The position numbers were made by a program, and so were the translations under genes. A stretch of DNA of 63,249 nt, the filler included, from Kipferlia bialata (taxonomy: Eukaryota), in assembly GCA_003568945.1 (NCBI GenBank). It is 5 parts of 4 records of this genome, joined end to end, with 100 filler letters (N's around TTAATTAATTAA, not from the genome) between each part and the next. Parts side by side here need not be neighbours in the genome. Positions count along the whole stretch, not along the records: positions 20,528 to 37,206 come from BDIP01000039.1; 4 more parts are not named here. One strand, given 5' to 3'. The notes under the pieces are model-generated. The model saw nothing but the letters and a program-made list of their open reading frames with translations, did not search any database and was not told the DNA's origin. Below are positions 11,601-54,855 of the stretch, in pieces. Every line of letters begins with the position of its first letter. The stretch's first letter is position 1.

Positions 11601-14600
11601 CCACCCCCATGCGTCTGAACAGGGCCTCCCTCTCCTTCTCCTGCTGCCTCTCTCTCTCCCTCTCATTGTCAGTGACTATAGCGGCAGGGGGCACCACACT
11701 GGCATCAGTGCAAGCAAATTTGTAGATATGTTTACATACCTAAGTATATATACACTTCTACATGCGTACAGCAGCATATTCATACATTCATGTGAATGTG
11801 TATATGATATTTAAGAATTATGGATCTCCATACCTGCATGCATAGAGCAGCAGTGCGTCTGTGTGGTGGGGTGTGATGGACAGAGACAGGGGGCGGGGGA
11901 AGGGGGTGAGGGTCTCCCTGTCAACTCGGAAGCCTGGGGGTCAGTTATCACTTGTATATGTATATGAATACATTGTCTACACCTAAAACTATACCTGCCA
12001 TGTCCATCTGTGTACATACAGCGTGTAGAGCAGCTACAATAATACCAAATATGCAAATACACAATACTTAGTGATTATCTATCTATGTCATATATGCTAC
12101 CTGCCATGTCTATGTGTGTACACACTGTGTGCAGGGCAGCCTTGACTATATATCATACATCTGTATATATACTATATATATATACACATGTTGTATATAT
12201 ATATATATGCCCTATCTACCTGCCATGTCCATCTGTGTACACACTGTGTGCAGGGCAGCCTTGACAGCTGGGTCCCCGTCCTCCAGAGAGGACAGGAGGG
12301 AGAGGGTGGCAGACTGGACTGGGGGTTAGAACTTGTAGTTATGTATACGTACAATGAGGCATATATACATATATACAAATAGTTTAGATGATAGGAGGGA
12401 CAGGGTGGCAGACTGGACTGGGGGTCATATATATATACATACTACTGCATATATATATATTGATATGAAAATGAATCAGGGGGACAGGGTGGCAGACTGG
12501 ACTGGGGGTTGGTGTGTGAATATATAAAATATACATGGATGTGAATCATACGGAAGAGGGTGGGGATACAAATGAAATATGGAGTACCTGACTGATCCAC
12601 CCCCAACAGGGCAGATGATGCCTTGGGAGTGAACTCACAGGAGGGGAGGGCAAGGGGCAGGGCCTGAGGGTGAGGGTCAATGAAACAATACTACATACAA
12701 TGGACGGGTACAAATATACACTGCGCACAGTACCTGGGAACAAAATTAAACATACGAGTATTGACTCTAGTGTATAAAATGTACAATACCTATGTACTAT
12801 TAGCCTTGTTGGGCATTGGGTATGAGAGTGTACATAAATAACACTGACTCTAGTATATATATACCACAATACCTGGGTACCATTAGCCTTGTTGGGCATT
12901 GGGTATGCCAAGGCCAGTGCAGATGCCTTGTCCTGTGCGCCCCCTACATTGACAGCCACAATATCTCTCTCTCCCTCTTCCTCTGTCTCATCGGACTCTG
13001 GGCATGTGCCAATGAGCACCACTCTATAGGTCTTGGTCTGCTTGGGCTTCTCTCTCTCCCTGGAGGGGAGGGCAGGGGGAAGACTGGGGTGAGACCGAGT
13101 ATCACTGTAACCACAACAGAATACACGCTTTCTCCCTCAGAATCGTATTACTATAATAATTACCACCAGTATACTATACCTAGCCATAGAAGTGGGTGGC
13201 TCTGCCCTGGATGTCGTCAGAAGGGACCGGAAGCCCTGGCCTCTGCCCTCCTGGGCACCCTGGGCGTGAGAGGGTTATAACATGATATATACTATATACT
13301 GAACAATTATGGAATTCACAACAATACGGTATTGCACATACATAGAGATTACACTCTTATGCCCCGGCCAGTAGTAATGAGTAACAATTATTATGAATGA
13401 AAATGGAACGTAAATCCCCTCCATGTACACGCTGAATGATACAACCTATTTGGCCTAGTAACGTAAACATGTATACTACCATTACCTTATCAGCCGAGTA
13501 CTTTGACGCGAATGACAGACTCATCATGTCATCTAGGACACATATATAGTAATATTGATATATATATATATACCTAAATACTCATATACGTGTAGTAATG
13601 AATATAGTACTCTTGTCTTACCTTATCAGCCGAGTACTTTGACGCGTATGACAGACTCATCATGTCATCCAGGACATGGTCCAGATGGGTCAGGAGGGCG
13701 TCACTGATGCCGGCACTGACGGCAATGTCCCTAGTGGTTAGAATACATATAATGCCAGTAGGTACATGCATATGACTGTATTTGGTACAAAGAGGATAAT
13801 AGTTTGTCACTGATGTCGGCACTGACTGCAACGTCTCTGGGGTGTAAGTACACACATACTCTTCTTCTACACAAACAATTAATATAGCAGCTATATATAT
13901 ATATAAATGGTGGTTGTCACTGATGCCGGCAATGTCCCTGGGGGCTCAGAATAATATACCGTACACACACATACACACATATATACACATATATGCATCC
14001 AAGTATATTAATGTACAAAATGTCCAGTACCTGAGCTTAGCGAGTGTCTTCCCTAGGTCAGGCTGGGCAGGGATAGGCCCAGGGTAGAGAGACATCTGCT
14101 CAGCGATGAGAAGCAGTCTCTCGACGGAGGAGGCATCTCCTGAGTGTGAGTGAGATATATACACTTGGAATATAAGCTGTGTACATTTGTGTACACACAT
14201 TCAGTACATTACATTCTACACTATAGCTAGTAAGACTACTGTGGATGACAAATAGTGGGCGTTCCCAAATGTATACACCACGTTATGAGCAGAGCTCACC
14301 TGACACCTCCATGTCTGCTGCCTGTGTTGTTACCATATCATATATACATACATATACATAAATATACCCAAACTACAATCTATCTATATATCTATATATA
14401 TATAACACTGTCCAATCACCTGACACCTCCATGTCTGCTGCCTGTGTCGTGATGGTGTGGCACCTATAATACACACTAATACACTACTATATACTGTCAT
14501 TCTCACCTGACACCTCCATGTCTGCTGCCTGTGTAGTGATGGTGTGGCAACTATAGAACATATCAATACACTACTATATATATATATATATATATATTAT

Positions 14601-17600
14601 AACTCTTTAGTACCTGACACCTCCATGTCTGCTGCCTGTGTTGTGATGGTGTGGCACAGCTGGGCAACGGCAAGGGCTGGAAGGTGAGGGAAGAGAACCA
14701 AAACGCATTGTCGCTCTACTATCTAAATACATATATATCAAATACATACCTCTGATGCGGATGTTGCCGAGGTAGAGTGTCCTGAATGCAGACAGGGCAG
14801 AGGGGAGGGCAGAGGGCTGGGGGTGAGGATGGTATAGTTATATACATATACTTTGTAAGTCAATGTATGTATATATATATACATCTATATGCAGACAGGG
14901 CAGAGGGGAGGGCAGAGGGCTGGGGTTGGAGGAGCGTGTATATACTCTTGAAATACTGGAATGGAAAGTCGCCAGGTGCCATGTAGTTTACATTGACCCT
15001 AAGAGACTCGTTGAGTATACCTAGTCATTGACTCAAACTATACCGTACATACATACCTTGACACTCATCAGATGAGCAATAGCACTATTGACCGACAGTC
15101 TGGAGCCCAGACCGGCACGGGTCTCTGGGTATGAGTGCATATTCTAAGTTTTAACGAATTATCTAAGATATATGTATGTACTGCTGTGCATACCGGACAT
15201 GAGTCTCTAATGAGGACAAACAAATTCACATATGGATATATGAAAGCAAATATGTAAATTTCTATACCGCGTGTGTTATACTACTATATACTACACTTAC
15301 CTGTGGGTGGAGGGAAGAGTGTGTCGATGTGTTCCATCCACACATCGGCAAAGGGGTAGATACTCTGCTTGGGGTCGGGGGTCAGGCGGCCTGACAGTAA
15401 GAATAATACATCCAGTTTAGGAAAATACATTTCTAATACATAGTCGGGGAGACACCATAGTATATACGTTATCAACGATATGGAGATGTCTTTCTCTACT
15501 GTTGAGATTGACTACTAATACTCACCTGACACATACTGGTACCACTTTGTGAGCCCCTCCACATACTCAGGACTGGGGGACAGGGCACGGTTGAGAGTGA
15601 GGGCAAACTCAATGGAGGCGCCCCTGATGTCAGTATAGAAGTGTTACAGATACCCAGAAGCACAGCAGCGTATACCGTGCAAGGGTGGCCAGTCTACTCT
15701 CTGGCACTGTACAATATAGAATACAAATATATGGGAGGCATACCTGGTTGCAAGGGTGGCCAGTCTCTGGCACTGTGCCACCTCTCTATCCACCAGAACA
15801 CCCCTGGTCTCAACAGGTGAGAGGGGGGTCAGGTGGGCCTCGAGGGATGCCTGGCGTCAGAGTGTTAATCTCTTTTATATACATATACATAGGAGGGTCA
15901 GATCGGCCTCGAGGGCTGCCTGGGATTAGTACATATACATGGATCTACATCCAAACATATACTTATGATATATCTTTTACACATGTTAACCGTGGACCCC
16001 ATAGACCATAGGCACAATACTCTATACAGTGCATGAGTGTATATATATATGAACATACCTGTGTCTCCTCCCTGGCCTTCCCCTTGCCCATGTCCACTAT
16101 GCACTGCATACCATCCACACTCAGACACAGCCTCTCCCGCTCAAGGTCGTGGTCTGGGGTAAGGCGGTAAGAAGCTGAGGTATTCTGCATGCAACGTGGG
16201 AGCATGCATTATATGAATATCTGACACATACCCGAGAGGATGTCAGCCGTAGCAGAGAGTGCTGCCCCGTATACCATGGGCAGGGACAGGGAGAGGGACC
16301 ACTCCACGGCCTGTCTCCTGGGGTGCCTGGGGTGAGATGGTGCATTGATAATGCTAAGAGTACACTATACTAGATAATCATAGTAAGCGTAAGATTGTAT
16401 ACAAACTCACGTTGTGCTAAGATTTCCATACAAAATTGCTACTGTGCATACCTGAGCAGCAGCAGCGCCCTTACTGGGGCCACTGCTCCCCCTGTCTCTC
16501 CCTCTGTGGGTGCCCTGACTGTTGTATCCTCAACCACAACTAGGTAGTGGGACCTGGAAATGAGATGTAGACATGGTATCTATATGTATAACACAATACT
16601 GTATATTTGAATACATACGTGTGCCCTGGCGCGTGATGAGACACTACAACTATAATAATAACCTATTGAGAGCACTTCTGTTGAGTGCATTGGGCACTGT
16701 CAGGGTGGATGGAAATATGTACAATGAATATATACTACATGTATTACACTACCACACAACTACCACACTATATATATAAGGAGTACCTGTTGAGTGCACT
16801 TCTGTTGAGTGCATTGGGCACTGTCAGGGTAGAGGGGTCAGGCAGCATGGGACCATCACTCTCCCCCTCCCCCTCTCTCTCCCTCTCTGCCATTGACCTG
16901 TACCAGGCATGGACAGGGGAGGCAAAGGAGGTCAGGGTGCACTTCACTGCGCAGTGGACCTTTTGGTTACAGAGGAGCAGTCTGAAATGTACTAATATAC
17001 ATATATTAATATGTACTGATCTAGTGTATCAATTATAATAGCGCCCTACCTTGACGCTCTTCCCCGTGGCTGACCCGAGCCAGGTGCTGATGTCACTGGG
17101 GGTGAGAATGGAAACATACATGGAACAAAACTCAATATATATATCAAAATATCTATATATAATGAAATTAGTATAAGCCAGGTGTTAATGTCACTGGGGG
17201 TGAGGATGGTAAAGACAACAATAAGTAATATGTTGTACTGTATACCCCCTATTCATATGTATGAGGAAGTTGGTTATATGAGTCAAAAATGTTCAGTTAT
17301 TGCTATTGTATATATAGTTATTAATGTGATGTACTGTGAATCTATACCCATGAGTGCTTATGGACCAATACATGTGTTTATTGTACCTGATGTACTTTGG
17401 CTCACATAATCTCAAGAGTATATGTAAATGTGTATGAATATATATATATATACAGTCATACATATTTACATGCATATGATACCTGATGTACTTTGACTCG
17501 TGTCCCTCAGTCACTGGGGGAGATGCCACCAGTCTCTGCCTCTCAGCGGCACAGACCTGAGGGTAAGAACAGATATATAAATAGGAGACAGTGAATACTA

Positions 17601-20427: not shown

Positions 20428-20527
20428 NNNNNNNNNNNNNNNNNNNNNNNNNNNNNNNNNNNNNNNNNNNNTTAATTAATTAANNNNNNNNNNNNNNNNN
20501 NNNNNNNNNNNNNNNNNNNNNNNNNNN
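20428..20527. other. Artificial assembly linker (44 N + TTAATTAATTAA + 44 N)
   Basis: Exactly 100 nt with a six-frame stop 12-mer; identical structure at four places. Confidence 0.97.
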
Positions 20528-20624
20528 TTTTTTTGTCTAAAAAACAACCCACCCCCCCCCCCCCCCCCCCCTCCCATTCTGTGCTTCTCTCTCTCTCTCT
20601 CTCTCTCTCTCCCTCTCCCCCTAG

Positions 20625-22961
20625 GACCTAGATGGCCAGTGGGTGGTCAAGCTGGAGAACATCCAGAGGATGGGAGACATCTCCGTCAGGGCCTTTGCCG
20701 GTGTCATCATCGGAGCCGCTCTCTCGGTGGGTGTCTGTGTATACTCACCCATGGACTGAGTCTCTTCCTCTGTATGTAGTGATATAGTCCCTCACCCCAG
20801 GCCGGTCTGGACTCTTCCTTCTTTGCCCCTCCCCCGGGCTCCTCCGATAGGACCATCCACATCCCATACTCTCCCGAGAAGGCCCCGTTCCTGGCCCTCC
20901 ACCTGCTGGAGATTGCCACCGTGGCCTCCCACATGAGGCTCAAGACAGTGCTCTACGTGGATGCCAGGAGGCCCCTGGGGCTCTCTGGGCTCTACCAGAT
21001 GTACACGGCATGCACAATCGGTGAGAGAGTGTCCTATAGTGTCTAATCTCTTCTCTCTTGACTATGAGTGACTCTCTCTTGAGTACCCACTAGTCTCTCT
21101 AACCATAACCCCCCCCCCCCGTTTACCCCAGGCCGTGAGATGTCCGAGGCCCCTGTCTGTGGCAAGTGGGCATCAGTCGTCTTCATCGACGGGGATGGAC
21201 AGGACACCATGGAGGCTGCCAGGGCTGCGGCAGAGGCAGACGCTGACAAGGGGCTCTACATGGCACCAGGTACGTAATCTCTCCCTCTTCCTTCACTTCA
21301 CCTCCCTTCCTACCCCTTTAGGCACCGAGAGGGAGTATGCCGTGGTGGGCCTTGGCTATCTCTCTATCTCTCTCTCTCTCTCTCTCACTTCCCCTCCTTT
21401 CCCTCCTACCTCCAGGGACTGAGAGGGAGTATGCCATGGTTGGTCTGGGCACTGCCGCCCAGGAGCTGTGGGAGGGCCAGTGTGTGGTGGATGGCCAGGA
21501 CGTGCTGTCAGACGTGGTGGTGCCAAACAGGAAGCTCAACTCTAGGTATCTATTCGAATATACATATACAATATATATATATACATTTATGAGTGGTACG
21601 TACTCTGGTATATACTGACATCCAGGGAGTTTGGCACCCTTGCCGCCTTTGCCCTCTATGCTGCCTCCTGTGAGACAGCCGGTGTCCCATCCAAGCCAGT
21701 CAGGATCCACTGTGCATCCCCAGCTGCCAACATCGAGGTGCGGGACTATATTTATGTCTCTCTCTCTGTCTCTCTTACCCCTTACATCAGTCTTCTCATG
21801 ACATGACCTCCATGACAGAATCTCTCCATCTCTCCATCTCTCTCTTTCTCTCTCTTTCTATTTATATATAGAATGACCCTCACCCCCCAGTCCTCCCATG
21901 ACATGACCTCCATGACATATGCTGCAGAGGCCAGGTGGACCAGGAACAAGCACGACTACGCACACCCCTCAGGTATACATACCCTGCCCCATACTCTATC
22001 TATCTATATACTACCACTATCATTGAGTGTTAGGTGCTTGAGGCCTTACCCTCATACTCTCTCTCTCTCTATACTACCACTGTCCATTACCGCCAGGTGT
22101 GCTGGAGGCCTTGCCCTCTCACTCTCTCTCTCTTCATATATACTATCCCTCACCCCCAGGTGTGCTTGAGGACTGGCTGAACGAGATGCCCTCTGCCGTC
22201 CCAGGTGTCCCCATCGAGACCATGACTGTCACCTCAGAGACACTCTCCGGTGTCCTCAGGTGCCATACATATTTCTTATGTGTGTTATTTGTATATTTTT
22301 TTGACGTACTTACTTACACCTAGGTTCCTGGGCATGTCCGAGGAGATGGCGTCCAAGGTGTGTGTCTCTGCATGCATGTCCCACGACAGCCAGGGCACGG
22401 GGGAGGGTATCTCCCTCTCCTCTGTCGAGTTCAGGAGTGTGATGGCCAAGGATAGGACCCTGCTGCACACCTACATGCTCCACGCAGACCCCCTCCTCAC
22501 AGCCTACCTCTCAGTCGACTACATGGTGACCATGGGCCTGGTGCACTCTGTCTCTCATCTGACGGAGGAGCAGCTCGGCCACGCATACCTCCTCAACCTC
22601 GGGTACACACACACACACGGTGCCAAGAGGAGTGTCTCAGGTCGGTGTGCCCTGCTATATGTACTCTATGTATATATGCACTCCCTCCCCCCCCCCCCAC
22701 GCCAGGCCTTGCCGCCCTCATGTTTGGCAAGGTGGCCGAGCACATCCCCCCCGAGTCATTCACAGGGGGTGCTGTATTGATCACAGGAGGCACAGTGGAC
22801 ATCAGGTGACAGTAGCAATGTCAATCTCTCAGTATCGATACTGATACTGATACTAATACTGATACTGATACTGACATCAGGACACTGAGGCAGGACGTGA
22901 CCACAGCCCACATGGGTGCCGGTAAGCACTGGATGCTGAAGGTCACCATCCAGCACGACAG
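20625..22961 (+). CDS. Internal part of a multi-exon hypothetical protein gene (both ends missing)
   Basis: 10 phase-compatible exons: DLDGQWVVKLENIQRMGDISVRAFAGVIIGAALSAGLDSSFF...HWMLKVTIQHDR. Ends in phase 2 just before the poly-C run. No recognised family. Confidence 0.7.
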
Positions 22962-22981
22962 GTGGGGTGTTATGTGGATAC

Positions 22982-23029
<48 letters not shown>

Positions 23030-23049
23030 TTCCCCCCCCCCCCCCCCCC
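22982..23049. repeat. Poly-C run (probable mis-join point)
   Basis: About 68 nt of nearly pure C. Similar runs sit at contig ends (about 20552, 37311, 45116, 63214). Confidence 0.85.
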
Positions 23050-23075
23050 GTTCATCATCGGTCTGGTAACCTCAG

Positions 23076-23404
23076 GTTCAGATGGCCCTCTGGAAGGACG
23101 TCATTGACTTTGAGAGACTACTCGGTACGTGTAAGTCACTCAATTAACTGGGTCACTCTATGTATCTTATATGTATATATATATATCTTGTATTGACTGA
23201 AGTCATTGACTTTGAGAGACTGCTCGGTACGTACCACAGTATTCATATTATTCACAACAAATTGGAGATCCGTCCGACTATTTGTGACTATTCCTGACTC
23301 TCAATTGACTTTAGGCGACTCCATGCAGCTTGACGCTGGTCTCGCTGCCAACAGACTATTGTTTGTGTACGAGCAGGCACTGCTGCACCTGAGGTATACA
23401 TACA

Positions 23405-23441
<37 letters not shown>

Positions 23442-26400
23442 TAGTATATTCTTATGTATTCCAACTACTATTGTGTGTTTGATGTCAATGAGCAAGTACT
23501 GCTGCACCTGAGGTACTTTCTCTCTTCTATTCTGACTATGAATCTATGTAGTAATGTATTTGTACATATATTGGTAATCTCGTTATTTTTGTGTATGAGC
23601 ATGTTCTGCTGCACCTGAGGTACTCTCTATTTCATGTACATATACGGATATATACAGATATTTGTATTCCAAATAGTATTCTGGCTTTGATAACTCATAC
23701 ATACATATGTATATACTCGCTCTATCTTCGTATTCATATGGCGAATTTATAATCGTATTACCTATGTCTTTTTACCCCAGGCACTGGCCCGACCTGTGGA
23801 TCGAGGCAGCGGAGGTCATGTCGGGGGCAAGGTATATAAATATATATATTGCATTATATGAGTACTGACTATGTTTGCTGTCTCTCTCCCTCCTTTACAT
23901 ACTCTTTGTGGCTCTATGCATGATCTCTAGGACCATTGTGTCCCGCACCATTCACTCACTCTCTATCTTAGTATCTCTCTCTCTCTATATATATATCTAT
24001 CTACCCTTACCTCTAGAACTATCATGTCTCGCACCATGCTGAAGCACGACATGGCATACGGGGCACTGACTGGCAAGGAGATTGCAATAGGTGTGTATAG
24101 TACTTTATATATATATTCAAAGAGTGAGAGAGGGATACATATATATGATATGTATGAATATTGTTATATATACTCATCCCTAGGCCTTCTGCAAAAGGGC
24201 ATCCTGGCCTGTCCCAATATATATAGATACACACATATATATGCATTAATATTTAGTGTGGACCTAGTATATATGTATCTTATACTCACAGAGGGGCATC
24301 CTGGCCTGTCCCAATGTAGAATATCTATATATATACCGAGATATAGAAAAATATATATATATAATATAAATATAAATATATAATATAAATATAAATATAT
24401 AATATAAATATATATATATTGACTTCCAGGTCTGCTCCAGAGGGGCATCCTGGCCTGTCCCAAGTGTGCCCTGCTCTACATGTGTCTGGCAGACAGATAC
24501 GAGGAGGTACAGTATATATATATATGTATATGCAAATATTTGAATATATGTGTTTACTAACTGTATTTAATACTATCGATATGCCCTGCTATACATGTGT
24601 CTGGCAGACAGATACGAGGAGGTATATATACCAGTATAATATGCGTTGACATGGGTTATTGTCTAAATGGATTCCAATCATTGGTAGTATTGAATCTATT
24701 CTCAATCTAACAACTAGAACAACAAGCGCCACCTGGCCGATGCCGTCTACAGAAGGGCACTCATATCGGCACCCAGCCCAGCTCTATTCAGGTAATCTTT
24801 CTCTCATGTGTTCCATGTACTATCTATATATTACAAGCATGTGCTTATTGTATCCGCACCCAGCCCAGCACTCTTCAGGTACTGTGTGTATGTGTGTGTA
24901 TGTGTGTGTGTTTGTCTCTCTTCCTATTCTGGTACGCTCTCTCCCACTCATTCTCAGCGAGTACATGAAGTATGTCTCCCGCACCCGTTCAGTGGCTAAT
25001 GCGTTTATTTCCCATCTCTCTCTTTCTCGCTCTCTCTCTCTCCCTCTCTCTCTCTCTCTATCTAACTATAGTGAGTACATGAAGTACGTGTCAAGAACAC
25101 GTTCAGTGGCTGATGCCCTCTCTCTCTATCCCTCTCTCTGTCTCTCTAACTGTAGTGAGTACATGAAGTATGTCTCCCGCACCCGTTCAGTGGCTGATGC
25201 CCTTTCGGCATTTGAGCTGGCATGCGACGATCCCAGTAAGATTCTAGGTGTGTTACAAGCTCTACAATGTGTCTAGATTATATACACTACCCATGTTTGT
25301 ACTCTCTACATGCATATATGTATACCTAACCATAGGCTCTCCCTCTGTCCCCTCTGTCCTCTATGCCATTGTATATATACATCTCTCTCTATATATATGT
25401 ATTTATATATATTTATAACCCTAGGCTCCCCCTCTGTCCCCTCTGTGCTTTATGCCATTGTGGCCAGACTAGATACCCTATACATGTACTATATATATAT
25501 ATATACATATATCATATGTCTCACTATAGGCTCTCCCTCTGTCCCGTCTGTCCTCTATGCCATTGTGGCCAGACTCGAGTACCACGGGATGGGTCGGTCA
25601 GGCACAGCAAGGCAGAATGCTATCAACAGGTATAATATATATATATATATATATATATAGTATATTGGATATATTAGTATGTATATATACCACCGGATGG
25701 GCAGGTCAGGCACAGCAAGGCAGAACGCTATTGACAGGTATACCTATGTACAGGAGTCTATGTTTGACGATGTTTGTGAGTGGATAACCCCCTAGGTTTG
25801 AGTCTGGCATCCGTGCCAACCCCCTCCCCCCCCACCACCACACACACATTTATTTTGTATATTATTTATATGTATCATCTATATGTATCATCTATATGTG
25901 TCATCTATGTGTATCATCTATATATACACTCACGTCTCAGGTTTGAGTCTGGCATCCGTGCCAACCCCACCAATGCAGAGCTGCTCGCAGAGTATGTCAG
26001 GTTAGTATGTTCCCCCTCTCTCTTTCTCTCTGCCAACACCCTAATTTACACCCTTCGCGAAGGTGATCAAGTTATAAGGATTAGTATGTACTCTCTCTCT
26101 CTCTCTCCCGCTACACCCTTATTGCCAGGTTCCTGTCCGAGATGGGTGATGAGACCGGTAAGGTGGATGTCATCAACAGGTATGGGATACATATAGATAC
26201 AGAGTAGTTGTATAATGTATATGTATAGAATGCATTTCATAGTGTGTAGTACTAATACATTGACAGGCATGGTGGATGTCATCAACAGGTGTGTATATAT
26301 ATTTATGTACACATATATCATGCATATAAATAGTATGCATAGTATATACTCATATATATATATAGTGTATATTATTCTCATTCGGACTGGCATGGTGGAT

Positions 26401-26987
26401 GTCATCAACAGGTATCGGAATACATGTATTTGTGTTAGTATACAACGTTAATGCTTTCTGTACTCCTTATACGTCTCGTCACCAGATGTGAAGACAGCCA
26501 CTCAGACTCTGACACATGGAACACACACACTACCTGCTCAATGTTATATAACCATATACATTAATATATATATTTATTACTAACTCCAGATGTAAGGACA
26601 GCCAATATATATGTATATATATTGGTATAGAGAGAGAGAGAGATAGTTGCAATATGTGGGGTGTCGCTGCATGGTTGCCACATGTAGTTGTTAGTAATAG
26701 TGATATATGACGTTCTCCTTTCCTCCAGGTGCAAGGACAGCCACTGATACTGATGATAATATATATATATATATATGCATTAATATGTTTTTATATGTAT
26801 ATATGTATTTCTTACCCCTCAGATGCAAGGACAGCCACTCGGACTCTGACACATGGAACCAGTACCTGGTGTCACTGCAGATAGAGAGCGGAAAGAGGTA
26901 TATCCAGGGCTTACTCTATCTCTGCTATAGTGTCTCTGAGTGTATTGAGACACTAACCCTTCAGAACCGAGTCCCAGCCCCTGCCTG

Positions 26988-27034
<47 letters not shown>

Positions 27035-27668
27035 CTTTCTATTTTCTCTCTCTCCATACATCTACGTGTGTAAGATATCATACTTACATATCAGAACCGA
27101 GTCCCAGCCCCTCCACGATGCCTCTCTCTCTCTCTCTAACTCCTTCAATATGCAATATATGTACTAATGACATGTACTAACATCAGAACCGAGTCCCAGC
27201 CCCTGCCTGATGCCTCCCCAGCCGAGGGGGTGCTACTGAGACACAGTTACAGGTATATATACATTCTACATGATTTGTTTCTATTTATAACTATATAAAT
27301 TAGAACAGCCCCTACACACATTTATGTTACATATCTATTCTATATCTGTGTTTTGTACTATATCTGTGTTTTGGTGTGTCTACTTGTATCCACACTGACC
27401 CCCAGAGACCTTGTGCCCCTTGCCCCTGCCCTCCAGAGCTGCATAGCAATGAGGTATACTATTATATACATACATATATAGGCACATATGTATATTAGAC
27501 GAAAGTTTGTGAAGCACATCACATTTGCATATTCACCAGTATTTCCCCTCCAAGACTGCCAATATGGTTTATATCCCTGTATGTATGTATATATATATAT
27601 AGTAACCCCTAGAGGTGTCCAGTCCCTGCCATCCATGACAACCAGTATACTCTTTCTCTCTCTCTCTT

Positions 27669-27713
<45 letters not shown>

Positions 27714-27802
27714 ATATATATACGTATACTAACATCTAGGGGTGTCCAGTCCCTCCCCTCCATGACAACCAGATATACTCTTTCTCTCTCTCTCTCTCAC
27801 TC

Positions 27803-27837
<35 letters not shown>

Positions 27838-29136
27838 TAACCTCAGGGGTGTGCAGTCCCTCCCCTCCATGACAGCTATCTGTATACTCTCTCTTTCTCT
27901 CTCTCTCTCTCTCTTCGTATATATATGTATTCTTATATATACACATTTACACCCAGGGGTGTCCAGTCCCTCCCCTCCATGACTGGCGAGGACGAGACAG
28001 TCGGGTTCCTGGCAAGGTGTGTATCAGTATATAGGGTTATTAGTATATATATATGTACTAGCACTATTTGCATATGGTAGGCTCCGACCCAGTCGGCAGA
28101 CTCAATCCATAGATATGGATAAATTCATATACATACGAACAAGTACTAATTACAGGGTCCCCATCTCCGACCCAGCTGGCAGACTCATCATTTACATATA
28201 TATCAATATATTCATGTGAGTATATATACACATATGTAGGTTACCTTCTATTCTCACCCCTAGGGTCCCCATCTCCGACCCAGCGGGCAAGCTGAGGGCA
28301 GAGAGGATCACAAAGCCAGACTTCCCACGCCTACCTGGTATGTATTACATATATATAATGGTAGTATTGTATAAATATTATATTCATTATAATAGTGTAT
28401 ATGAGTGTCAGTATTCACTAGGCCAGACTTCCCACGCCTTCCTGGTACGGTATTGTATATATAATGATAGAGCTACTTATATTTGTTTACAATATTTTAG
28501 AGCAAGTGTCAGTTGATCAAGCCAGATTTCTCACGCCTGCCTGGTATGTATTGCATAAACATATATATATGAATATACATTAATTCTAAGTGACCTTTTC
28601 AATGAGTATTTGAATGGATTACATTTTGATATGTATGTATTTTTATCCCCTTCTTAACAGCAGTCTATGACGTTGTGAGTGACTCCGTCACCAACTATAT
28701 ATATATATATTTATATGTATGTATACTTGTCTGCATATCTCCCTCATATGTTTAACTATATATCCCCCTTCTAACCCCCAGTCTATGACGTTGTGAGTGA
28801 CTCAGTCACCAACAATATTAGTATATATATATATATATATTAATTATATACATAATATATATACATTACTAAAATCTCTCTCTTTTACCCCCAGTCTATG
28901 ACGTTGTGAGTGACTCAGTCACCAACCATATTCATATATATATATATATATATATACTATATATATATTATACCTACGTAGTAATAACTCCATATATATA
29001 TATATATATATATCTTAACCCCAGTATATGACGTTGTGAGTGACTCAGTCACCAACCCCAGAGGCGGGGCCCAGATATCGGCGGTATGGCTCTTTCTCTC
29101 TCTCTCTCTCTCTCTCCCTCTCTCTCTCTCTCTCTC

Positions 29137-29171
<35 letters not shown>

Positions 29172-29208
29172 TCACATATACAACCCCAGATATCGGCGGT
29201 ATGTATAT

Positions 29209-29245
<37 letters not shown>

Positions 29246-32200
29246 CTTCTGTATATAACCCCCAGCACAACCCTGTGAACCTGAGTATATATGTGTATAT
29301 GTCAATTAATATGTCTATCCATAATACCCCTCACCTCAGCACAACCCTGTGAACCCACTTCCCCCCACGGCTCCTGCCGCACTCAAGGCACTCTATGGCC
29401 TTCTTCCAGGTATATATATATATATTCATATGTATATATATATTCATATGTATATGTGAAACATAGCTTATATATGCATATACCCCACTGCACCTGCCGC
29501 ACTCAAGGCATTGTATGGTCTCCTGCCAGGTATTCTTTGATGTATGTGGATATATATTTTGACTCCTTTGACCTCTTCTGACAGATATCGTATGTATAAT
29601 TCATGTATGTGTAATGGGTACATGTCTGTATTAGATCAATATCTGTAAATACTTGTCGCGTGCGTGTATTGATTGTGTATGATATACATATATTGCTCTA
29701 TCTCACTTCCAGTCCACATGTCTGCTGTTCTCCCCCCCCTTGTGACAGACGTCATATCTATGTATTTATTCATATACATTTAGTAGAACAATAGTATTGT
29801 ATTGATAGTGTGGTCATACCTTACTCCAGTCCACATGTCTGCTGTCCTCCCCCCCCTTGTGACAGACGTCATAGTGGGTGCAAACAAGTGGAAGCCAGGT
29901 ATTGGATACAATTATGTGTGTAAATATGTGTGGATTCCTGTCTTGATTGTACATCTTGCATTTTGATTCAGTGAGACAAGTCCAAGTCTGATTTATAATT
30001 CCATGTCTTCATTGTCTGTCTCACCCCCCAGCCAGACGCGACCCAGATGGCCACCCGTACCTACCCACAAGGGCAGTCGGTACGTATCATATGTATACAG
30101 TGTGGATATATANNNNNNNNNNNNNNNNNNNNNNNNACGTATCATATGTATACAGTGTGGATATATATATGAATATATATGTATATGCATTTACTATGTG
30201 TCATATAGTATACCTACCCATAAGGGCTGTCGGTACGTATGCCTCTACTTATGTTCAAGTTTGGGCAAGACGAAGGCTGGGGAGAGTCACATTCCTATCT
30301 AGCAATTTATACGCGTAGACAGATAGATTGTTATACATATGTATACATATGCCCTCACTCCAGTGGCCACTGCCAATTGGTTGGGTGAGAAGGGATAGTC
30401 CCTTCCTATATATATGTATACATTTGTCCATTATTATTACTAAACCCTCTCTCCATATATATTTACTCTCTCTGACCCCAGTGACCACTGCCTACTCCCT
30501 GGGTGAGAAGGCGAGAGAGAGAGAGAGAGAGGAGGCAGAGAGGGAGAGAGAGAGAATCGAGGCCAACCGCAGACAGGCAGAGAGAGAGGTACATGCACAT
30601 GTATATGAATACCTGACATGCATATGAAATATATATATTTTTATATATATACTCGTACTATTGTGGATGTACTTGTAAACAAACACTAATTGTAGGGCAT
30701 CGACGCTCGCCGTGCCGAGAGAGAGAGACAGCTGGCCAAGGAGGAGGAGAAGGAGAGAGAGAGAGACAGGGAGAGAGAGAGGGCCAAGAAGGCAGTGGAC
30801 CCCAGGGCTAGGTACATGATTCTCTTCTGTTTCTAGTTATGGGTGTAGTTGTATAGTATATAGATATTTGAATATTTGTATTACTAGTTGTATGTATATG
30901 TATGTGTATGTATATACTGATGCCCAGGCCCGTTGACCCAAGGGCACAGGACCCTAGAGCCATGGATCCTAGAGCTATAGACCCCAGGTGATAACTGCAT
31001 CATATATGTTATAATATGTGTAATAAGTAAGGTATACGTAATGTTCTCTCTTTATATGCATTATCATTATATACCCATCATGTATGTATACTGACCGTCA
31101 GACAGGCCTCCATCGATCCCAGACAGGCAGCCGACCCTAGGTATGTGTACTTGTAGTACTTGGAATATTATATGTTTGATGTATGCAACCAAGTATATAC
31201 AGTCCATAATTAGAATAATCATTAGAGTTCATTCTATAAATTAATTTATATATATATATATTGTACACTGTGTATCTGCACTCACCGCCAGACAGGCAGC
31301 TGACCCCAGGGCCCAGGATCCAAGGTCCATCGACCCCAGGTATAGACAGACGTAAGGCCATGCATTATGTGGATATATGTATTCAAATATATATATATAT
31401 ATATATATATGTGTATATAGTTAATCACTCACCCGTCAGGCAGGCAGCCATGGACCCCAGGCAGGCTGCTGATCCCAGGTACATATATAACATACATACA
31501 TACATACATATATGTATGTATTCAGGCATGCTGCTGAACCCAGAGGAGTGGACCCCATGTATTCATATGTATACATATATATTCATAGTATGTATATGTA
31601 TACATCCTATTCTATCTTATATAGGTATATACACTCACCCTCAGACATGCTGCTGACCCCAGAGCAGTGGACCCTAGATCCATTGATCCCAGGTACGATA
31701 TACAAGAGATATACATGTGCTTATAAAAAATATATTGTGCCTCACTTTGAGTTATGGTGTCTCGCTATATACTTGCCCATTTAATGGCACGCTATATTTG
31801 TAGTATGTAAATATATACATCAATACATATACCTCACGTCAGGCAAGCCGGTTCCGCTGACCCCCGTGATCCAAGGTACGCTACCCTCTGTGTATATTAT
31901 GTATATATATATCTGTGTATATATGTATATATAGGTATTCATGTCGTGATCCAAGGTATGGCACACTGTCAACTCTGTAGATGATGTGTATACAATTATT
32001 TGTGTACTAGTACACTCTGTGAAGATATTTGTGAAAATGTGTGTATATTGATACTGGTGGTATATATGCTAGTACTGGTATATATGAGTGTGTATGTATC
32101 TCATATCCCTAGGATGCAGGCTGCCGACCCCCGTGACCCCAGACAGGCAATGGACCCAAGGTATGGGTATATATATATATATAAGTATATATACATTTAC

Positions 32201-32566
32201 ATTTATATATATATATATATATGTTACATATATATATATATATGTAGGAATTAGTACATGTGTATTATATCCCCAGACAGGCCATGGACCCAAGGTATAT
32301 ACATATATATATACATATATACTTTTATATTTATATATATATAGGAATTAGTGCTTGTGTATTATGACTCCGTGACCCCAGACAGGCAATGGACCCCAGG
32401 TGCCTATTATAGTTATATCAACAACAATATGAATATATATTTGTTCCTATGTCAGTAAGTACTGCTGCCTCTGGGAGACTTTGCACTTCCTACGATCTGT
32501 GTTTGTCTATTATATATTGTAATTAGCTATCTCTGGCTCACTTCCAGGGCCAAGCGCCGCCCATAA
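23076..32566 (+). CDS. CSTF3: Cleavage stimulation factor 77 kDa / Rna14 / Suppressor-of-forked HAT protein, 3' part, with coiled coil and DPR-repeat tail
   Basis: Spliced: VQMALWKDVIDFERLLGDSMQLDAGLAANRLLFVYEQALLHLRHWPDLWIEAAEVM...GLLQRGILACPKCALLHVCLADRYEE...AVYRRAL...ALFSEYMKYVSRTRSVADALSAFELA...LYAIVARLEYH...NRFESGIRANPTNAELLAEYVRFLSEMGDE. This follows the CstF-77 HAT motifs as I recall them (WKxYIxWE, FAYEQCLL, HxPDIWYEAA, YMKFxRR, FExGL, YIDYL). Ends AKRRP* at 32564-32566. N-terminal HATs are absent. Confidence 0.85.
24958..25120 (+). repeat. Intronic echoes (acceptor + 5' exon half) of exon 25156-25235
   Basis: Two copies of SEYMKYVSRTRSVA, each behind its own branch/AG. Representative of dozens of such echoes. 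Confidence 0.95.
30113..30136. other. Short scaffold gap with overlapping flanks
   Basis: 24 N; ACGTATCATATGTATACAGTGTGGATATATA occurs on both sides, i.e. an unmerged overlap. Confidence 0.9.
30795..32160 (+). repeat. Coding DPR repeat array (about 20 xxDPR units) spread over short phase-2 exons
   Basis: AVDPR, PVDPR, AQDPR, AMDPR, AIDPR, SIDPR, AADPR ... QAMDPR. Confidence 0.85.
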
Positions 32567-32730
32567 GTGCCAGGGTCACCGACATAATAATAGATTGAGC
32601 CGATGTTGTCTATTTACAGTAATTGTTCCATTAGGTCTCGAACAGCACGTTGACTTGTTACGTTAGCAGCAGAGCGATGTGCAATAGTAACACGATTCTT
32701 CCAGAGCATGTATATCAAAGAAAACATAAG

Positions 32731-33421
32731 TCAGCATCTATATGTCTCACTGGCGTTGATACGAGCTGAGAGCCTACGCATAGGCGGATCAGAGACCAAT
32801 CCTCTGACAGGTGCAGTGCACTCTGGAGGGGAGAGAGGTCTAGTGTTGGCACGGTGCATGCATATATCGTCCCACCTCTCTCCCTCCCACCGCAGCATAG
32901 CGTCCACCTGGCGCTTCCTGAAGGCATTGACCCTTGACATCAGCCTCTCTGACTGGACGGGGTCTCTGACAAAGAGACGCAGCCTGTCGATCTTGGCCTT
33001 GGGAACCTGGAGGGTAAGACCATATTTATGAGGAAGCACTGCACTTGTCAATAACGGATACAAAGTAGGTGAGAGAGAGAGAGAGAGAGGGAGAGAGAGA
33101 CACACCTCTTTCACACCACGGAGGTAGCGATCATAGTTACAGGTGTCTGGGATGTACTCGCCTAAAGGTGAATATGGGAGAGAGAGAGAGAGAGAGAGAG
33201 GGATGTACTCGCCTGAAGGTGGGATATGGGAGAGAGAGAGAGAGAGAGATGGTTACATAATTGAGAGATGTCGGTGATGCACTCGCCTAGGTCAGATAGA
33301 AGGGGAGGGGGAGGAAGGGGGTAGAATACAAAGATGATGTAGTGTAATGTATGTATGTAGATAGTAGATAGAGGATTATGATACACGGAGAGTACCTGGT
33401 GCACGGCCCCTCCAGAGAGAA

Positions 33422-33455
<34 letters not shown>

Positions 33456-35887
33456 AGAATTTGATGAGAGCATGATACGCAGTGCCAGTAGTGTGTACCT
33501 GGTGCCCGGCCTCTCCTGCGTCCCTGCCCTGCCACTCTCTTGTACCTGGTATCAGTAGCAGTAGCAGCATATATATATATATCAGTATAGGAAATATAGG
33601 ATACTGATAATCTGCCCTGCCACTCTCTTGTACCTGGTATCAGCATATATATATCAGTATCAGTATATAGGATATATATAGGATATATATCAGTATATAT
33701 AGGGATACTGATACTCTGCCCTGCCACTCTCTTGTACCTAGTAGCAGTATATATGTATGTATGTATCAGTAGCAGTATATATTGGATACTGATACTGGTA
33801 CCTCTCTAACAACATGATACTGAGCCTGACAAGTTCCGTCTGACTCCGCTTCTGCTCCGCCTCTCTCTTCACCCTCCACTCTCTCTCCCACTTCTCCAGT
33901 CCGCCACCCTTTCGGACAGCAGCAATCAACCTGGCAATCAACATAACATATCAAGAGATGAGTGAGAGAGAGTATATTACAGTATACATATTTAGCAGCA
34001 ATCAACCTAGCAATCAATAGAGACCAGGGGAATCCCCTGTGGGGATGAAAAATAATGAGTATACAATTAATGAAGAACACTCATCCTACCTCGCCATAAC
34101 AACAATACCAGGGGAGGGCCCCTGGGCCCCATCAGTAACTACGGGGACCAATGCACGGCCTACAGTCCTCTCCTGGGACTCAAGCACCTTCGACCCAAGC
34201 CGGCCTAGGTCCCCAACAAGCCCCTGCAGAATCAGTATGAGTTAATACTATGGTCTATAGATACACACAGAGTATAGTCTCTAGATATATATATGTATCT
34301 ATAGTCTATGGATACATATATACTATAGATACAGGTTCAGACATTAGTACAGGTACTGGCCCAGTATCAGTATCAGTATATATACAAGTACTGATAATGA
34401 TGCCTATGATACTTATACGCATACATATACTGATGCTATTATACCTTCAATTGTATCAGACGGTCACAGTAGTCTGTACATTGCGAAGTGTTACTGCCAA
34501 AGGGAAACACTAGCCGCGCCATCTGGTATTAGTGTCAGTATCGCTTCATTGTTTCATGATTGAAACTATCTTATCGAAAGGACACTTCGTGAATGACTAG
34601 TACTAATATAATACCTGGTCCATCTCGAATGCATGCAGAGGCTGATCTAGGGCACTCCCTCCTGTACCCTTATTGCACAACCAGCGATACCCAACCACGC
34701 TGTCTGCCAGCCATGTGAATCCAATAAGATCCCCAGTAGGATCCCTATAGATATGTTCCCCGCCAGAGGCCGCTGATAGCATCTCGTCAACCAGTCTGAT
34801 GTGAGAAGAATCTTCTCAGAAGATACTATCTTCAAGATAGTGATAAAGAGAATACAGAGATACACAGAATCTGTGACAGATACAAATATGGACATAGATA
34901 ACGGGAGAGAGGGCGGTTGGCAGGAACGGTGTGATAGAGAGAACACAACACACACAAATATATATGTATGCATATGTATAACAATAGACAGGAGACAGGC
35001 GATTGACACCTCACAGGAGTATATACTATATAGTATGTAACCATGCTCTATACACTCATTCACTATATATAGTGTATATATAGTATAGATACCTCCTAAT
35101 TTGTTGTTATAAACTAGTTATAAATTCTAACTACTATACCTCATTAACACCAAACTGGCAGTCGCGTATGTACATCTGAACTGGCCCATATGTCTCTCTC
35201 TCTCTCTCTGCAACTTATTCTCCTGCTGCCGGCCACCCTCCTTCTTTCTCTCTCTCCTCTTCCTATCCCTCGCTCTCGCCTCTCTGTCACCATGCCTATC
35301 GTGCATACGGCGCTTGGCAGGTGTGGTACGGTCCTTGTGACTGCAGCTGTTCTCGCCGGAGGCCTCTGTCACCCCTGGAGACACAGACCCACCAGGGCCT
35401 CGCTTCTGTGACAAGTGCACCCTATGGACACTGAGTGAGTGATACAAGGGAAGATATGTTTGTGTAATTACTGTCCTTTCCGAATTAGAATATTGAGTAT
35501 ATATAGAGTCAGCAATCGGCTGCGTACATCGAGAGAGTGCTGTAGTCATACACAAGAAGATTACAAGTGGGAGCGCTGTCATAGGGAATCTCTGTCAGAC
35601 AGATACTCTATATGTACTGTTCAGGATATATTTAGCATATACATACTACGTACTGGTCAAGGATAGGCTGGCGCAGGTGTATGATCCGCGGGTTGCCAGC
35701 TACCAGCCTGGGGTCAATGCATGTACCCCAACCCGCCCACAACTATATCCCCACTGTTCCCCTTCAAGCCTATCTCCTCACAAACCACTCAGGTCCACAC
35801 AGCAATAATGAAGTGCTCTAGCAAGAAATATATCCCCCACCTGTACACCTGAAGGCACCGAGTATCAGGCTCTAACCGAGTGGTCAT
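32731..35887 (-). CDS. Multi-exon hypothetical protein
   Basis: Candidate ATG 35887 (MTTRLEPDTRCLQVYR). Exons include RLVDEMLSAASGGEHIYRDPTGDLIGFTWL..., MARLVFPFGSNTSQCTDYCDRLIQLK, GLVGDLGRLGSKVLESQE..., LIAAVRKGGGLEKWEREW..., GEYIPDTCNYDRYLRGVKE, VPKAKIDRLRLF...ETYRC*. No recognised family. Confidence 0.6.
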
Positions 35888-37206: not shown

Positions 37207-37306
37207 NNNNNNNNNNNNNNNNNNNNNNNNNNNNNNNNNNNNNNNNNNNNTTAATTAATTAANNNNNNNNNNNNNNNNNNNNNNNNNNNNNNNNNNNNNN
37301 NNNNNN
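37207..37306. other. Artificial assembly linker
   Basis: 44 N + TTAATTAATTAA + 44 N. Confidence 0.97.
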
Positions 37307-45170: not shown

Positions 45171-45270
45171 NNNNNNNNNNNNNNNNNNNNNNNNNNNNNN
45201 NNNNNNNNNNNNNNTTAATTAATTAANNNNNNNNNNNNNNNNNNNNNNNNNNNNNNNNNNNNNNNNNNNN
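45171..45270. other. Artificial assembly linker
   Basis: 44 N + TTAATTAATTAA + 44 N. Confidence 0.97.
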
Positions 45271-45303
45271 TATATATCCACACTGTATACATATGATACG
45301 TAC

Positions 45304-46137
45304 CGACTGCCCTTGTGGGTAGGTACGGGTGGCCATCTGGGTCGCGTCTGGCTGGGGGGTGAGACAGACAATGAAGACATGGAATTATAAATCAGACTTG
45401 GACTTGTCTCACTGAATCAAAATGCAAGATGTACAATCAAGACAGGAATCCACACATATTTACACACATAATTGTATCCAATACCTGGCTTCCACTTGTT
45501 TGCACCCACTATGACGTCTGTCACAAGGGGGGGGAGGACAGCAGACATGTGGACTGGAGTAAGGTATGACCACACTATCAATACAATACTATTGTTCTAC
45601 TAAATGTATATGAATAAATACATAGATATGACGTCTGTCACAAGGGGGGGGAGAACAGCAGACATGTGGACTGGAAGTGAGATAGAGCAATATATGTATA
45701 TCATACACAATCAATACACGCACGCGACAAGTATTTACAGATATTGATCTAATACAGACATGTACCCATTACACATACATGAATTATACATACGATATCT
45801 GTCAGAAGAGGTCAAAGGAGTCAAAATATATATCCACATACATCAAAGAATACCTGGCAGGAGACCATACAATGCCTTGAGTGCGGCAGGTGCAGTGGGG
45901 TATATGCATATATAAGCTATGTTTCACATATACATATGAATATATATATACATATGAATATATATATATATACCTGGAAGAAGGCCATAGAGTGCCTTGA
46001 GTGCGGCAGGAGCCGTGGGGGGAAGTGGGTTCACAGGGTTGTGCTGAGGTGAGGGGTATTATGGATAGACATATTAATTGACATATACACATATATACTC
46101 AGGTTCACAGGGTTGTGCTGGGGGTTATATACAGAAG

Positions 46138-46174
<37 letters not shown>

Positions 46175-46211
46175 ATATACATACCGCCGATATCTGGGGT
46201 TGTATATGTGA

Positions 46212-46246
<35 letters not shown>

Positions 46247-47545
46247 GAGAGAGAGAGAGAGAGAGGGAGAGAGAGAGAGAGAGAGAGAAAGAGCCATACC
46301 GCCGATATCTGGGCCCCGCCTCTGGGGTTGGTGACTGAGTCACTCACAACGTCATATACTGGGGTTAAGATATATATATATATATATATATGGAGTTATT
46401 ACTACGTAGGTATAATATATATATAGTATATATATATATATATATATATGAATATGGTTGGTGACTGAGTCACTCACAACGTCATAGACTGGGGGTAAAA
46501 GAGAGAGATTTTAGTAATGTATATATATTATGTATATAATTAATATATATATATATATATACTAATATTGTTGGTGACTGAGTCACTCACAACGTCATAG
46601 ACTGGGGGTTAGAAGGGGGATATATAGTTAAACATATGAGGGAGATATGCAGACAAGTATACATACATATAAATATATATATATATAGTTGGTGACGGAG
46701 TCACTCACAACGTCATAGACTGCTGTTAAGAAGGGGATAAAAATACATACATATCAAAATGTAATCCATTCAAATACTCATTGAAAAGGTCACTTAGAAT
46801 TAATGTATATTCATATATATATGTTTATGCAATACATACCAGGCAGGCGTGAGAAATCTGGCTTGATCAACTGACACTTGCTCTAAAATATTGTAAACAA
46901 ATATAAGTAGCTCTATCATTATATATACAATACCGTACCAGGAAGGCGTGGGAAGTCTGGCCTAGTGAATACTGACACTCATATACACTATTATAATGAA
47001 TATAATATTTATACAATACTACCATTATATATATGTAATACATACCAGGTAGGCGTGGGAAGTCTGGCTTTGTGATCCTCTCTGCCCTCAGCTTGCCCGC
47101 TGGGTCGGAGATGGGGACCCTAGGGGTGAGAATAGAAGGTAACCTACATATGTGTATATATACTCACATGAATATATTGATATATATGTAAATGATGAGT
47201 CTGCCAGCTGGGTCGGAGATGGGGACCCTGTAATTAGTACTTGTTCGTATGTATATGAATTTATCCATATCTATGGATTGAGTCTGCCGACTGGGTCGGA
47301 GCCTACCATATGCAAATAGTGCTAGTACATATATATATACTAATAACCCTATATACTGATACACACCTTGCCAGGAACCCGACTGTCTCGTCCTCGCCAG
47401 TCATGGAGGGGAGGGACTGGACACCCCTGGGTGTAAATGTGTATATATAAGAATACATATATATACGAAGAGAGAGAGAGAGAGAGAAAGAGAGAGTATA
47501 CAGATAGCTGTCATGGAGGGGAGGGACTGCACACCCCTGAGGTTA

Positions 47546-47580
<35 letters not shown>

Positions 47581-47669
47581 GAGTGAGAGAGAGAGAGAGA
47601 AAGAGTATATCTGGTTGTCATGGAGGGGAGGGACTGGACACCCCTAGATGTTAGTATACGTATATATAT

Positions 47670-47714
<45 letters not shown>

Positions 47715-48348
47715 AAGAGAGAGAGAGAAAGAGTATACTGGTTGTCATGGATGGCAGGGACTGGACACCTCTAGGGGTTACTATATATATATATACATAC
47801 ATACAGGGATATAAACCATATTGGCAGTCTTGGAGGGGAAATACTGGTGAATATGCAAATGTGATGTGCTTCACAAACTTTCGTCTAATATACATATGTG
47901 CCTATATATGTATGTATATAATAGTATACCTCATTGCTATGCAGCTCTGGAGGGCAGGGGCAAGGGGCACAAGGTCTCTGGGGGTCAGTGTGGATACAAG
48001 TAGACACACCAAAACACAGATATAGTACAAAACACAGATATAGAATAGATATGTAACATAAATGTGTGTAGGGGCTGTTCTAATTTATATAGTTATAAAT
48101 AGAAACAAATCATGTAGAATGTATATATACCTGTAACTGTGTCTCAGTAGCACCCCCTCGGCTGGGGAGGCATCAGGCAGGGGCTGGGACTCGGTTCTGA
48201 TGTTAGTACATGTCATTAGTACATATATTGCATATTGAAGGAGTTAGAGAGAGAGAGAGAGGCATCGTGGAGGGGCTGGGACTCGGTTCTGATATGTAAG
48301 TATGATATCTTACACACGTAGATGTATGGAGAGAGAGAAAATAGAAAG

Positions 48349-48395
<47 letters not shown>

Positions 48396-51300: not shown

Positions 51301-51941
51301 ATCTCCTTGCCAGTCAGTGCCCCGTATGCCATGTCGTGCTTCAGCATGGTGCGAGACATGATAGTTCTAGAGGTAAGGGTAGATAGATATATATATAGAG
51401 AGAGAGAGATACTAAGATAGAGAGTGAGTGAATGGTGCGGGACACAATGGTCCTAGAGATCATGCATAGAGCCACAAAGAGTATGTAAAGGAGGGAGAGA
51501 GACAGCAAACATAGTCAGTACTCATATAATGCAATATATATATTTATATACCTTGCCCCCGACATGACCTCCGCTGCCTCGATCCACAGGTCGGGCCAGT
51601 GCCTGGGGTAAAAAGACATAGGTAATACGATTATAAATTCGCCATATGAATACGAAGATAGAGCGAGTATATACATATGTATGTATGAGTTATCAAAGCC
51701 AGAATACTATTTGGAATACAAATATCTGTATATATCCGTATATGTACATGAAATAGAGAGTACCTCAGGTGCAGCAGAACATGCTCATACACAAAAATAA
51801 CGAGATTACCAATATATGTACAAATACATTACTACATAGATTCATAGTCAGAATAGAAGAGAGAAAGTACCTCAGGTGCAGCAGTACTTGCTCATTGACA
51901 TCAAACACACAATAGTAGTTGGAATACATAAGAATATACTA

Positions 51942-51978
<37 letters not shown>

Positions 51979-52307
51979 TGTATGTATACCTCAGGTGCAG
52001 CAGTGCCTGCTCGTACACAAACAATAGTCTGTTGGCAGCGAGACCAGCGTCAAGCTGCATGGAGTCGCCTAAAGTCAATTGAGAGTCAGGAATAGTCACA
52101 AATAGTCGGACGGATCTCCAATTTGTTGTGAATAATATGAATACTGTGGTACGTACCGAGCAGTCTCTCAAAGTCAATGACTTCAGTCAATACAAGATAT
52201 ATATATATACATATAAGATACATAGAGTGACCCAGTTAATTGAGTGACTTACACGTACCGAGTAGTCTCTCAAAGTCAATGACGTCCTTCCAGAGGGCCA
52301 TCTGAAC
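45304..52307 (-). CDS. CSTF3: Mirror copy of CstF-77 exons 23076-30079
   Basis: Reverse complement of the + strand copy, inside the duplicated contig. Confidence 0.7.
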
Positions 52308-52353
52308 CTGAGGTTACCAGACCGATGATGAACGGGGGGGGGGGGGGGGGGAA

Positions 52354-52401
<48 letters not shown>

Positions 52402-52421
52402 GTATCCACATAACACCCCAC

Positions 52422-54758: not shown

Positions 54759-54855
54759 CTAGGGGGAGAGGGAGAGAGAGAGAGAGAGAGAGAGAGAAGC
54801 ACAGAATGGGAGGGGGGGGGGGGGGGGGGGGTGGGTTGTTTTTTAGACAAAAAAA

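Follow-up and report, generated by a model that had tools for sequence, protein, structure and literature searches.

The last intron of a predicted CstF-77/Suf family gene of Kipferlia bialata contains two 18-nt units, at 32277-32294 and 32382-32399, which an earlier note on this DNA had proposed as frame-preserving micro-exons arising from the resemblance of DPR codons to splice acceptors. We are fairly confident that both units are silent by-products of tandem duplications spanning an exon-intron border, that they are too short and too weakly branched to be used, and that the neighboring array of DPR-coding exons grew by duplication of exon plus intron. The units are most likely silent pseudo-exons of an already known kind, and the process that generates them is most likely unusually active in the Kipferlia genome. 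The observations in the earlier note were mostly right, and their interpretation was mostly not borne out. All counts given here come only from the window, the whole 63,249-nt stretch of DNA that was analyzed, and all features of the gene lie on its plus strand.

A 105-residue exon in the window is 100% identical to KIPB_000364, a partial protein of Kipferlia bialata, and exact mapping of the 873-residue KIPB_000364 model to the window gave 28 GT-AG introns and an end at 30079, before an N gap. The upstream exons at 23076-30079, which encode the HAT region (partial KIPB_000364, residues about 449 to 873) and are separated by echo-rich introns, were assigned by protein mapping, Pfam, PDB and the echo scan. 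Residues 449 to 677 matched Pfam Suf (PF05843) with 81.9 bits against a cutoff of 24.7, and the HAT region had four matches in the PDB, all to CstF-77 chains (E values of 3e-14 to 1e-13). Judged by this Suf HAT domain, the gene to which these upstream exons belong is a member of the CstF-77/Suf family. Pfam searches with three single exons as queries, one of them out of frame, gave no useful match, and the search for relatives found no close relative of the HAT half. The reading frame stays open past the N gap, across exons 30482-30588 and 30696-30811 and then the DPR array, and ends at 32566. The echo scan also detected, past the gap at 30211-30232, a donor echo of exon 30032-30079, which would tie the DPR-tail side to the CstF-77 exons. 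Because of the open frame, the partial model without a stop and this echo, we infer a single gene running from the HAT exons into the DPR tail; among the RNA contigs of run X2, none was seen to bridge the gap between them.

Several features of the assembly bear on how the window is read. Spacers of the form N44-TTAATTAATTAA-N44 lie at 20428-20527, 37207-37306, 45171-45270 and 54856-54955; the window thus consists of separate contigs joined together, and neighborhood across the spacers is therefore meaningless. A stretch of 9585 bases occurs twice, 100% identical and inverted (20528-30112 and 45271-54855), with both copies bounded by N runs; one of the two is likely a redundant contig, and the 5' part of the gene therefore appears twice. 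The annotated model seems chimeric at a poly-C run (22983-23049): KIPB_000364 residues 1 to 445 match long PALP-domain proteins, residues from 449 on match CstF-77, and the junction is likely a mis-join or a fused gene model. At the other end of the gene, its RNA contig and that of a convergent minus-strand gene end no more than 5 bases apart (32601-32605), so the 3' ends of the two genes abut or overlap.

Both units lie downstream of the last DPR exon, E7 (32113-32160), a 48-nt exon of phase 2-2 that is the source of both echoes, holds an in-exon acceptor mimic, TGACCCCAG, at 32134-32142 and is matched by an RNA contig piece (32111-32156) with no other letters. The last intron (32161-32547, 387 nt) is built of three modules that start from the GTs at 32161, 32295 and 32400, and contig positions place its removal as a whole in the RNA contig. 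It is followed by the last exon (32548-32605), in which the frame places the stop at 32564-32566 and which runs to the end of the RNA contig at 32605. The echo scan found donor-side echo 1 at 32271-32294 (24 nt, 23/24 identical to the end of E7) and donor-side echo 2 at 32370-32399 (27/27 identical to the end of E7 over 32370-32396), the latter also found in a DNA contig; each contains one candidate micro-exon. Both candidates are preceded by AG and followed by GT at the coordinates originally proposed. As read from the sequence, they are in frame, lack a stop and would each add QAMDPR, and the claim that the DPR exons are all of phase 2-2 is true for the seven exons in 30928-32160. The proposed DPR-codon acceptor mimic was found ahead of unit 2 and not of unit 1, which follows an AT-rich stretch with no branch motif; accordingly, TGACCCCAG occurs in echo 2 and not in echo 1. 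The motif TGACCCCAG, taken in the earlier note as the branch-plus-acceptor consensus, is enriched in the window (10 observed versus 1.12 expected), and one copy, at 30473-30481, is an inferred acceptor of this gene; as a consensus it is incomplete, as position -3 of real branch hexamers is never G (0/37) and the CGT-GAC mimic has G there. An AT run after the GT is common to E7 and echo 1. The two echoes also have an upstream stretch of intron in common, which makes it likely that one arose from the other by tandem duplication, with echo 2 as the probable copy of echo 1. The hallmarks of silent pseudo-splice sites produced by border-spanning duplication, namely, a copied exon end with its donor, duplicated flanks and use of the upstream-most donor, were all found.

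Two sequencing runs, X1 (DNA) and X2 (RNA), cover the locus, both as contigs; neither is labeled as RNA at its source, and X2 was treated as such because GT-AG introns are missing from its contigs. Two X2 records lie on 30140-34300, none of them on the echoes, and bins without RNA cover over the echoes were excluded from the evidence. RNA record 9 (432 nt, depth 196) has five listed joints at which GT-AG introns are left out, and exon 31440-31478 appears as the intervening letters of one of them. The joint table lost two joints at repeats, and the joint between 32160 and 32548 was read from record positions: base 32546 lies at position 60 and base 32156 at position 63, which indicates a direct splice, whereas one unit would predict position 81 and two units position 99. 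Base 30928 lies at position 373, matching the combined length (373) of the eight true exons that begin with the one at 30928. All eight true exons are therefore present in the spliced RNA over the array, and neither 18-nt unit is, in the single contig from this one run. The main transcript consists of all true exons and neither micro-exon, and the units matter little as micro-exons because the main RNA skips both. The echoes at 31526 and 31945 are likewise absent from record 9; donors 32161 and 31876 are used, and 32295, 32400 and 31956 are skipped. The suggestion that the echoes work as micro-exons and make the repeat number splice variable thus finds no support in the single RNA contig over the array. 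The RNA represents one run from one culture condition, and contigs lose rare variants; because minor isoforms are dropped in this way, the units could still be included rarely. In the DNA, the echo 2 unit is present with no other letters in a contig of run X1 (record 4, 32352-33059), and unit 1 lies in a repeat stretch that was passed over.

Splice signals were scored with a model of the donor and of the branch plus acceptor that draws on just 37 introns (8 of the array, 27 taken from the annotated protein and 2 inferred); the intron at 22969-23075, which includes the poly-C run and is 1 of the 28 mapped, was left out. Across these introns the branch A lies 7 to 10 nt from the intron end, position -3 of the branch hexamer is C in 31, T in 6 and G in 0, and real acceptors score 5.0 to 18.6 in leave-one-out scoring. 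The unit 1 acceptor scores 4.5, below all 37 real acceptors, and has no branch motif. That of unit 2 scores 12.2 to 12.4, above 10 of the 37 and thus within the lowest third, and ranks second among the AGs of the last intron; its branch has a G at position -3. Both donors are ordinary by score (9.6 for unit 1 and 9.8 to 10.0 for unit 2), and inclusion of unit 2 would create introns of 220 and 148 nt, which are of normal length. None of the 36 internal exons is shorter than 33 nt, about twice the length of either unit. DPR codons within real exons can resemble acceptors more closely than the echoes do: GCT-GAC-CCC-AG codons at 31301-31309 and 31654-31662 score 16.8 in the splice model, above 32 of the 37 real acceptors, and the in-exon mimic ending at 32142 scores 12.2. 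All three (31309, 31662 and 32142) are read through by the RNA contig, with no other letters at the first two. Since the two stronger in-exon mimics are read through, the mimicry of acceptors by DPR codons is real yet insufficient for splicing.

Echoes are not confined to the DPR tail. Donor-side echoes were flagged in 12 of the 37 introns versus 0 of 870 mismatched exon-intron pairs, a count in which one donor flag (31523-31543) in fact marks an acceptor echo and two genuine donor echoes fell under "other," and acceptor-side echoes were flagged in 11 of 37 versus 1 of 870. By hand count, 21 of the 37 introns have an echo of some kind; their median length is 289 nt, compared with 112.5 nt for the 16 introns without. 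Repeat periods of 60 to 130 nt are found throughout the window, and an annotation-free scan recovered 93 exact local repeats of at least 16 nt with a median spacing of 113. A junction-like motif was present in 77/93 of these versus 2812/4266 random stretches, the motif being too lax to discriminate. The 687-nt intron at 28338-29024 comprises six modules of about 100 to 130 nt, with two donor echoes followed by three acceptor echoes, and intron length tracks the number of echoes. In other genes (window positions 1-20427), echoes can be seen by eye, for example as three copies near 14300-14660 and, on the minus strand, near 8100-8340.

Six pseudo-exons in the 37 introns exceed the score thresholds, and two of them are 18-nt in-frame units: that of echo 2 and one at 28427-28444. 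The latter, which served as a control, derives from a donor echo in a non-DPR intron and has an acceptor of 11.3 and a donor of 7.4; it is absent from the annotated protein, in which its hexapeptide occurs once. An equivalent unit with passing scores in a non-DPR intron shows that such units are not confined to DPR-coding sequence. The same introns hold 31 decoy donors and 28 decoy acceptors, of which 9 equal or exceed the score of their own real site, these stronger decoys all lying in introns known from annotation or inference and none in those from the RNA seen here; the decoys at 30363 and 31956 score 17.3 and 10.5. The Kipferlia annotation was, according to part of its published description, made with transcript hints (PMC5874029). 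Six acceptor echoes in the region 24792-30481 (24957, 26589, 27846, 28781, 29712 and 30363) carry a full branch-plus-AG and score at least as high as their own real acceptor. The acceptor echoes in this region sit upstream of the real acceptor, and the open frame requires the last acceptor. Border copies in 21 of 37 introns, strong decoys among 9 of 28 acceptors and a frame that needs the outermost sites together suggest that Kipferlia, a short-intron protist, uses exon-based splice-site choice.

The DPR array (30696-32160) comprises exons 30696-30811, 30928-30987, 31102-31140, 31292-31339, 31440-31478, 31645-31692, 31843-31875 and 32113-32160 and encodes 20 DPR in total. All eight array introns are of phase 2, and seven of the eight come directly after the AG of a DPR arginine. 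Symmetric exons of one phase, as in tandem exon duplication arrays, are found in all seven exons from 30928 on (7/7 phase 2-2), each of which holds two to four DPR units and never one. Exon pairs E2/E4 and E3/E5, with identities of 0.74 and 0.77, are the top two of 21 pairs, a ranking expected from a two-exon duplication. At their 3' ends, the array introns are more alike than other introns are (P = 1.4e-4, the pairs not being independent); their 5' ends show no clear relationship (P = 0.06), and the pairing of the most similar 3' ends departs from that of E2/E4 and E3/E5. From 14 phase-2 and 9 phase-0 MAG/R sites, the chance of eight phase-2 introns in eight is roughly 0.006 to 0.02, an estimate that leaves the rival models unseparated because exon duplication equally predicts uniform phase. 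The earlier note had suggested that the echo process built the array. This stands to the extent that local tandem duplication likely made both, as the exon pairs and phase indicate, but not by way of DPR-codon acceptors: none of the eight array acceptors matches GAYCCNAG, no exon holds one unit only, and none is below 33 nt. Founding of array exons by DPR codons is unsupported because it predicts GAYCCNAG-like acceptors and single-unit exons, neither of which is seen. On these comparisons, the array likely grew by exon-plus-intron duplication, through the same mutational process as the echoes.

Could echo 2 be an emerging micro-exon that a minority of transcripts include, so that these carry 21 rather than 20 DPR, with echo 1 silent? 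Its unit is in frame and lacks a stop, its acceptor and donor scores fall in the real range, its acceptor is the second best of the intron, and a low-complexity tail would probably accommodate one more DPR unit. Minor forms carrying it would be invisible to contigs, and stochastic splicing of repeat number is described for UBC in part of one report (PMC10809524). Nevertheless, we consider this unlikely: echo 2 is absent from the only RNA contig, its branch has a G seen at that position in none of the 37 real introns, its 18 nt are about half of the shortest of 36 exons, and in-exon mimics stronger than its own are ignored. A broader reading, which we regard as a long shot, is that Kipferlia shows exon and intron birth in progress, with echo 2 as a newborn minority micro-exon tuning a putative WD40-binding array of 20 DPR on CstF-77 that is unmatched among the relatives found.

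The complete proposal of the earlier note, in which DPR-codon acceptors turn echoes into exons, build the array and set the repeat number by alternative splicing, draws on the good fit that DPR codons can have to the acceptor consensus (16.8) and on the eight phase-2 introns, seven of them right after a DPR arginine AG. We judge it very improbable in view of the 0/8 array acceptors matching GAYCCNAG, the two to four units in each of the seven exons, the exon-pair similarity pointing to whole-exon duplication, the single RNA form seen and the equal prediction of uniform phase by exon duplication. It is barely credible that the echoes are assembly artifacts of a repeat-rich short-read genome. 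The window does have other faults (the 9585-base double copy and the likely chimeric poly-C join), but the echoes carry substitutions relative to the exon and to each other, their flanks differ, and a separately assembled DNA contig, which may be from the same sample, has echo 2 with no other letters.

We therefore favor border-spanning duplication, which may have proceeded as follows. A duplication of 100 to 130 nt with one end in the exon and the other in the intron would leave the coding sequence intact and place a spare exon end and GT downstream, and a second duplication could then have produced echo 2. The spliceosome would likely keep the first donor and the last acceptor, i.e., the sites on either side of a full-size exon; at 18 nt and with a weak branch site, a unit would likely be too short for exon definition. 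The array likely grew when a duplication of the same type took in an entire intron or exon and both of its ends fell within DPR units; in that case the real sites would be copied, the frame kept and phase 2 repeated.

The density of ignored decoys and the tail of 20 DPR are worth more than the micro-exons. The gene resembles CstF-77/CSTF3/Rna14/Suf in its HAT region and differs in its tail (30696-32566), where 20 DPR follow a charged ER-rich stretch; relatives have at most one. Among 84 HAT-matching relatives, many of them partial and counted apart from the protein itself and five matches to the N-terminal half, DPR is absent from 74 and occurs just once in the other 10. A search for an annotated DPR-tail protein with a weak 40-residue query found none. 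According to part of one report, WDR82 binds the DPR motif of 3'-end and termination factors, and a DPK motif of CstF77 binds CstF-50 (PMC13710762). The 20-DPR tail could be a multivalent docking array for WDR82 or CstF-50, and on CstF-77 it would present in unusual multivalent form a motif that otherwise occurs in single copies. No published account of the echoes or the DPR tail in Kipferlia was found in main texts, and the strings "duplicat" and "alternative" have no occurrences in the available text of PMC5874029. The genome is reported, in parts of the respective articles, to have 124,912 introns (PMC5874029) and to retain only 87 of 174 spliceosomal proteins (PMC6679479). The rate at which duplications turn into exons or introns bears on whether Kipferlia introns are ancestral or partly gained.

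The closest known counterpart of the silent units is the variable-number tandem repeat in intron 7 of F7, whose pseudo-donors are silent according to part of the report of Borensztajn et al. 2006 (PMC1557585). There, as far as the available text describes it, the first repeat unit spans the exon-intron border, the most upstream donor is used and the downstream donor copies are silent, as in Kipferlia. The F7 repeat is a single human 37-bp minisatellite in that description, whereas the Kipferlia units are 100 to 130 nt long, decay fast and affect 21 of 37 introns; unlike in F7, echoes also occur on the acceptor side, and a few units additionally contain an AG. Gao and Lynch reportedly treated intron gain through tandem genomic duplication in 2009, as related in the review of Yenerall and Zhou. 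That review, in the part available, describes such gain as precise or as proceeding via latent splice sites (Yenerall and Zhou 2012, PMC3443670). In both settings, a local duplication makes new splice-site pairs, and latent duplicate sites are usable in the mechanism as described there. It acts on an exonic segment whose new sites are used, whereas in Kipferlia an existing border is spanned and the sites are skipped in the RNA seen. The earlier proposal itself resembles the case of the polyubiquitin gene UBC, in which, according to part of Duan et al. 2024 (PMC10809524), dual-specific splice sites let splicing set the repeat number, repeat-coding sequence resembling splice signals. The UBC sites, as described there, are AGGT sequences inside the coding array with observed isoforms, in contrast to the Kipferlia units, which are intronic copies beside an array for which one form is seen.
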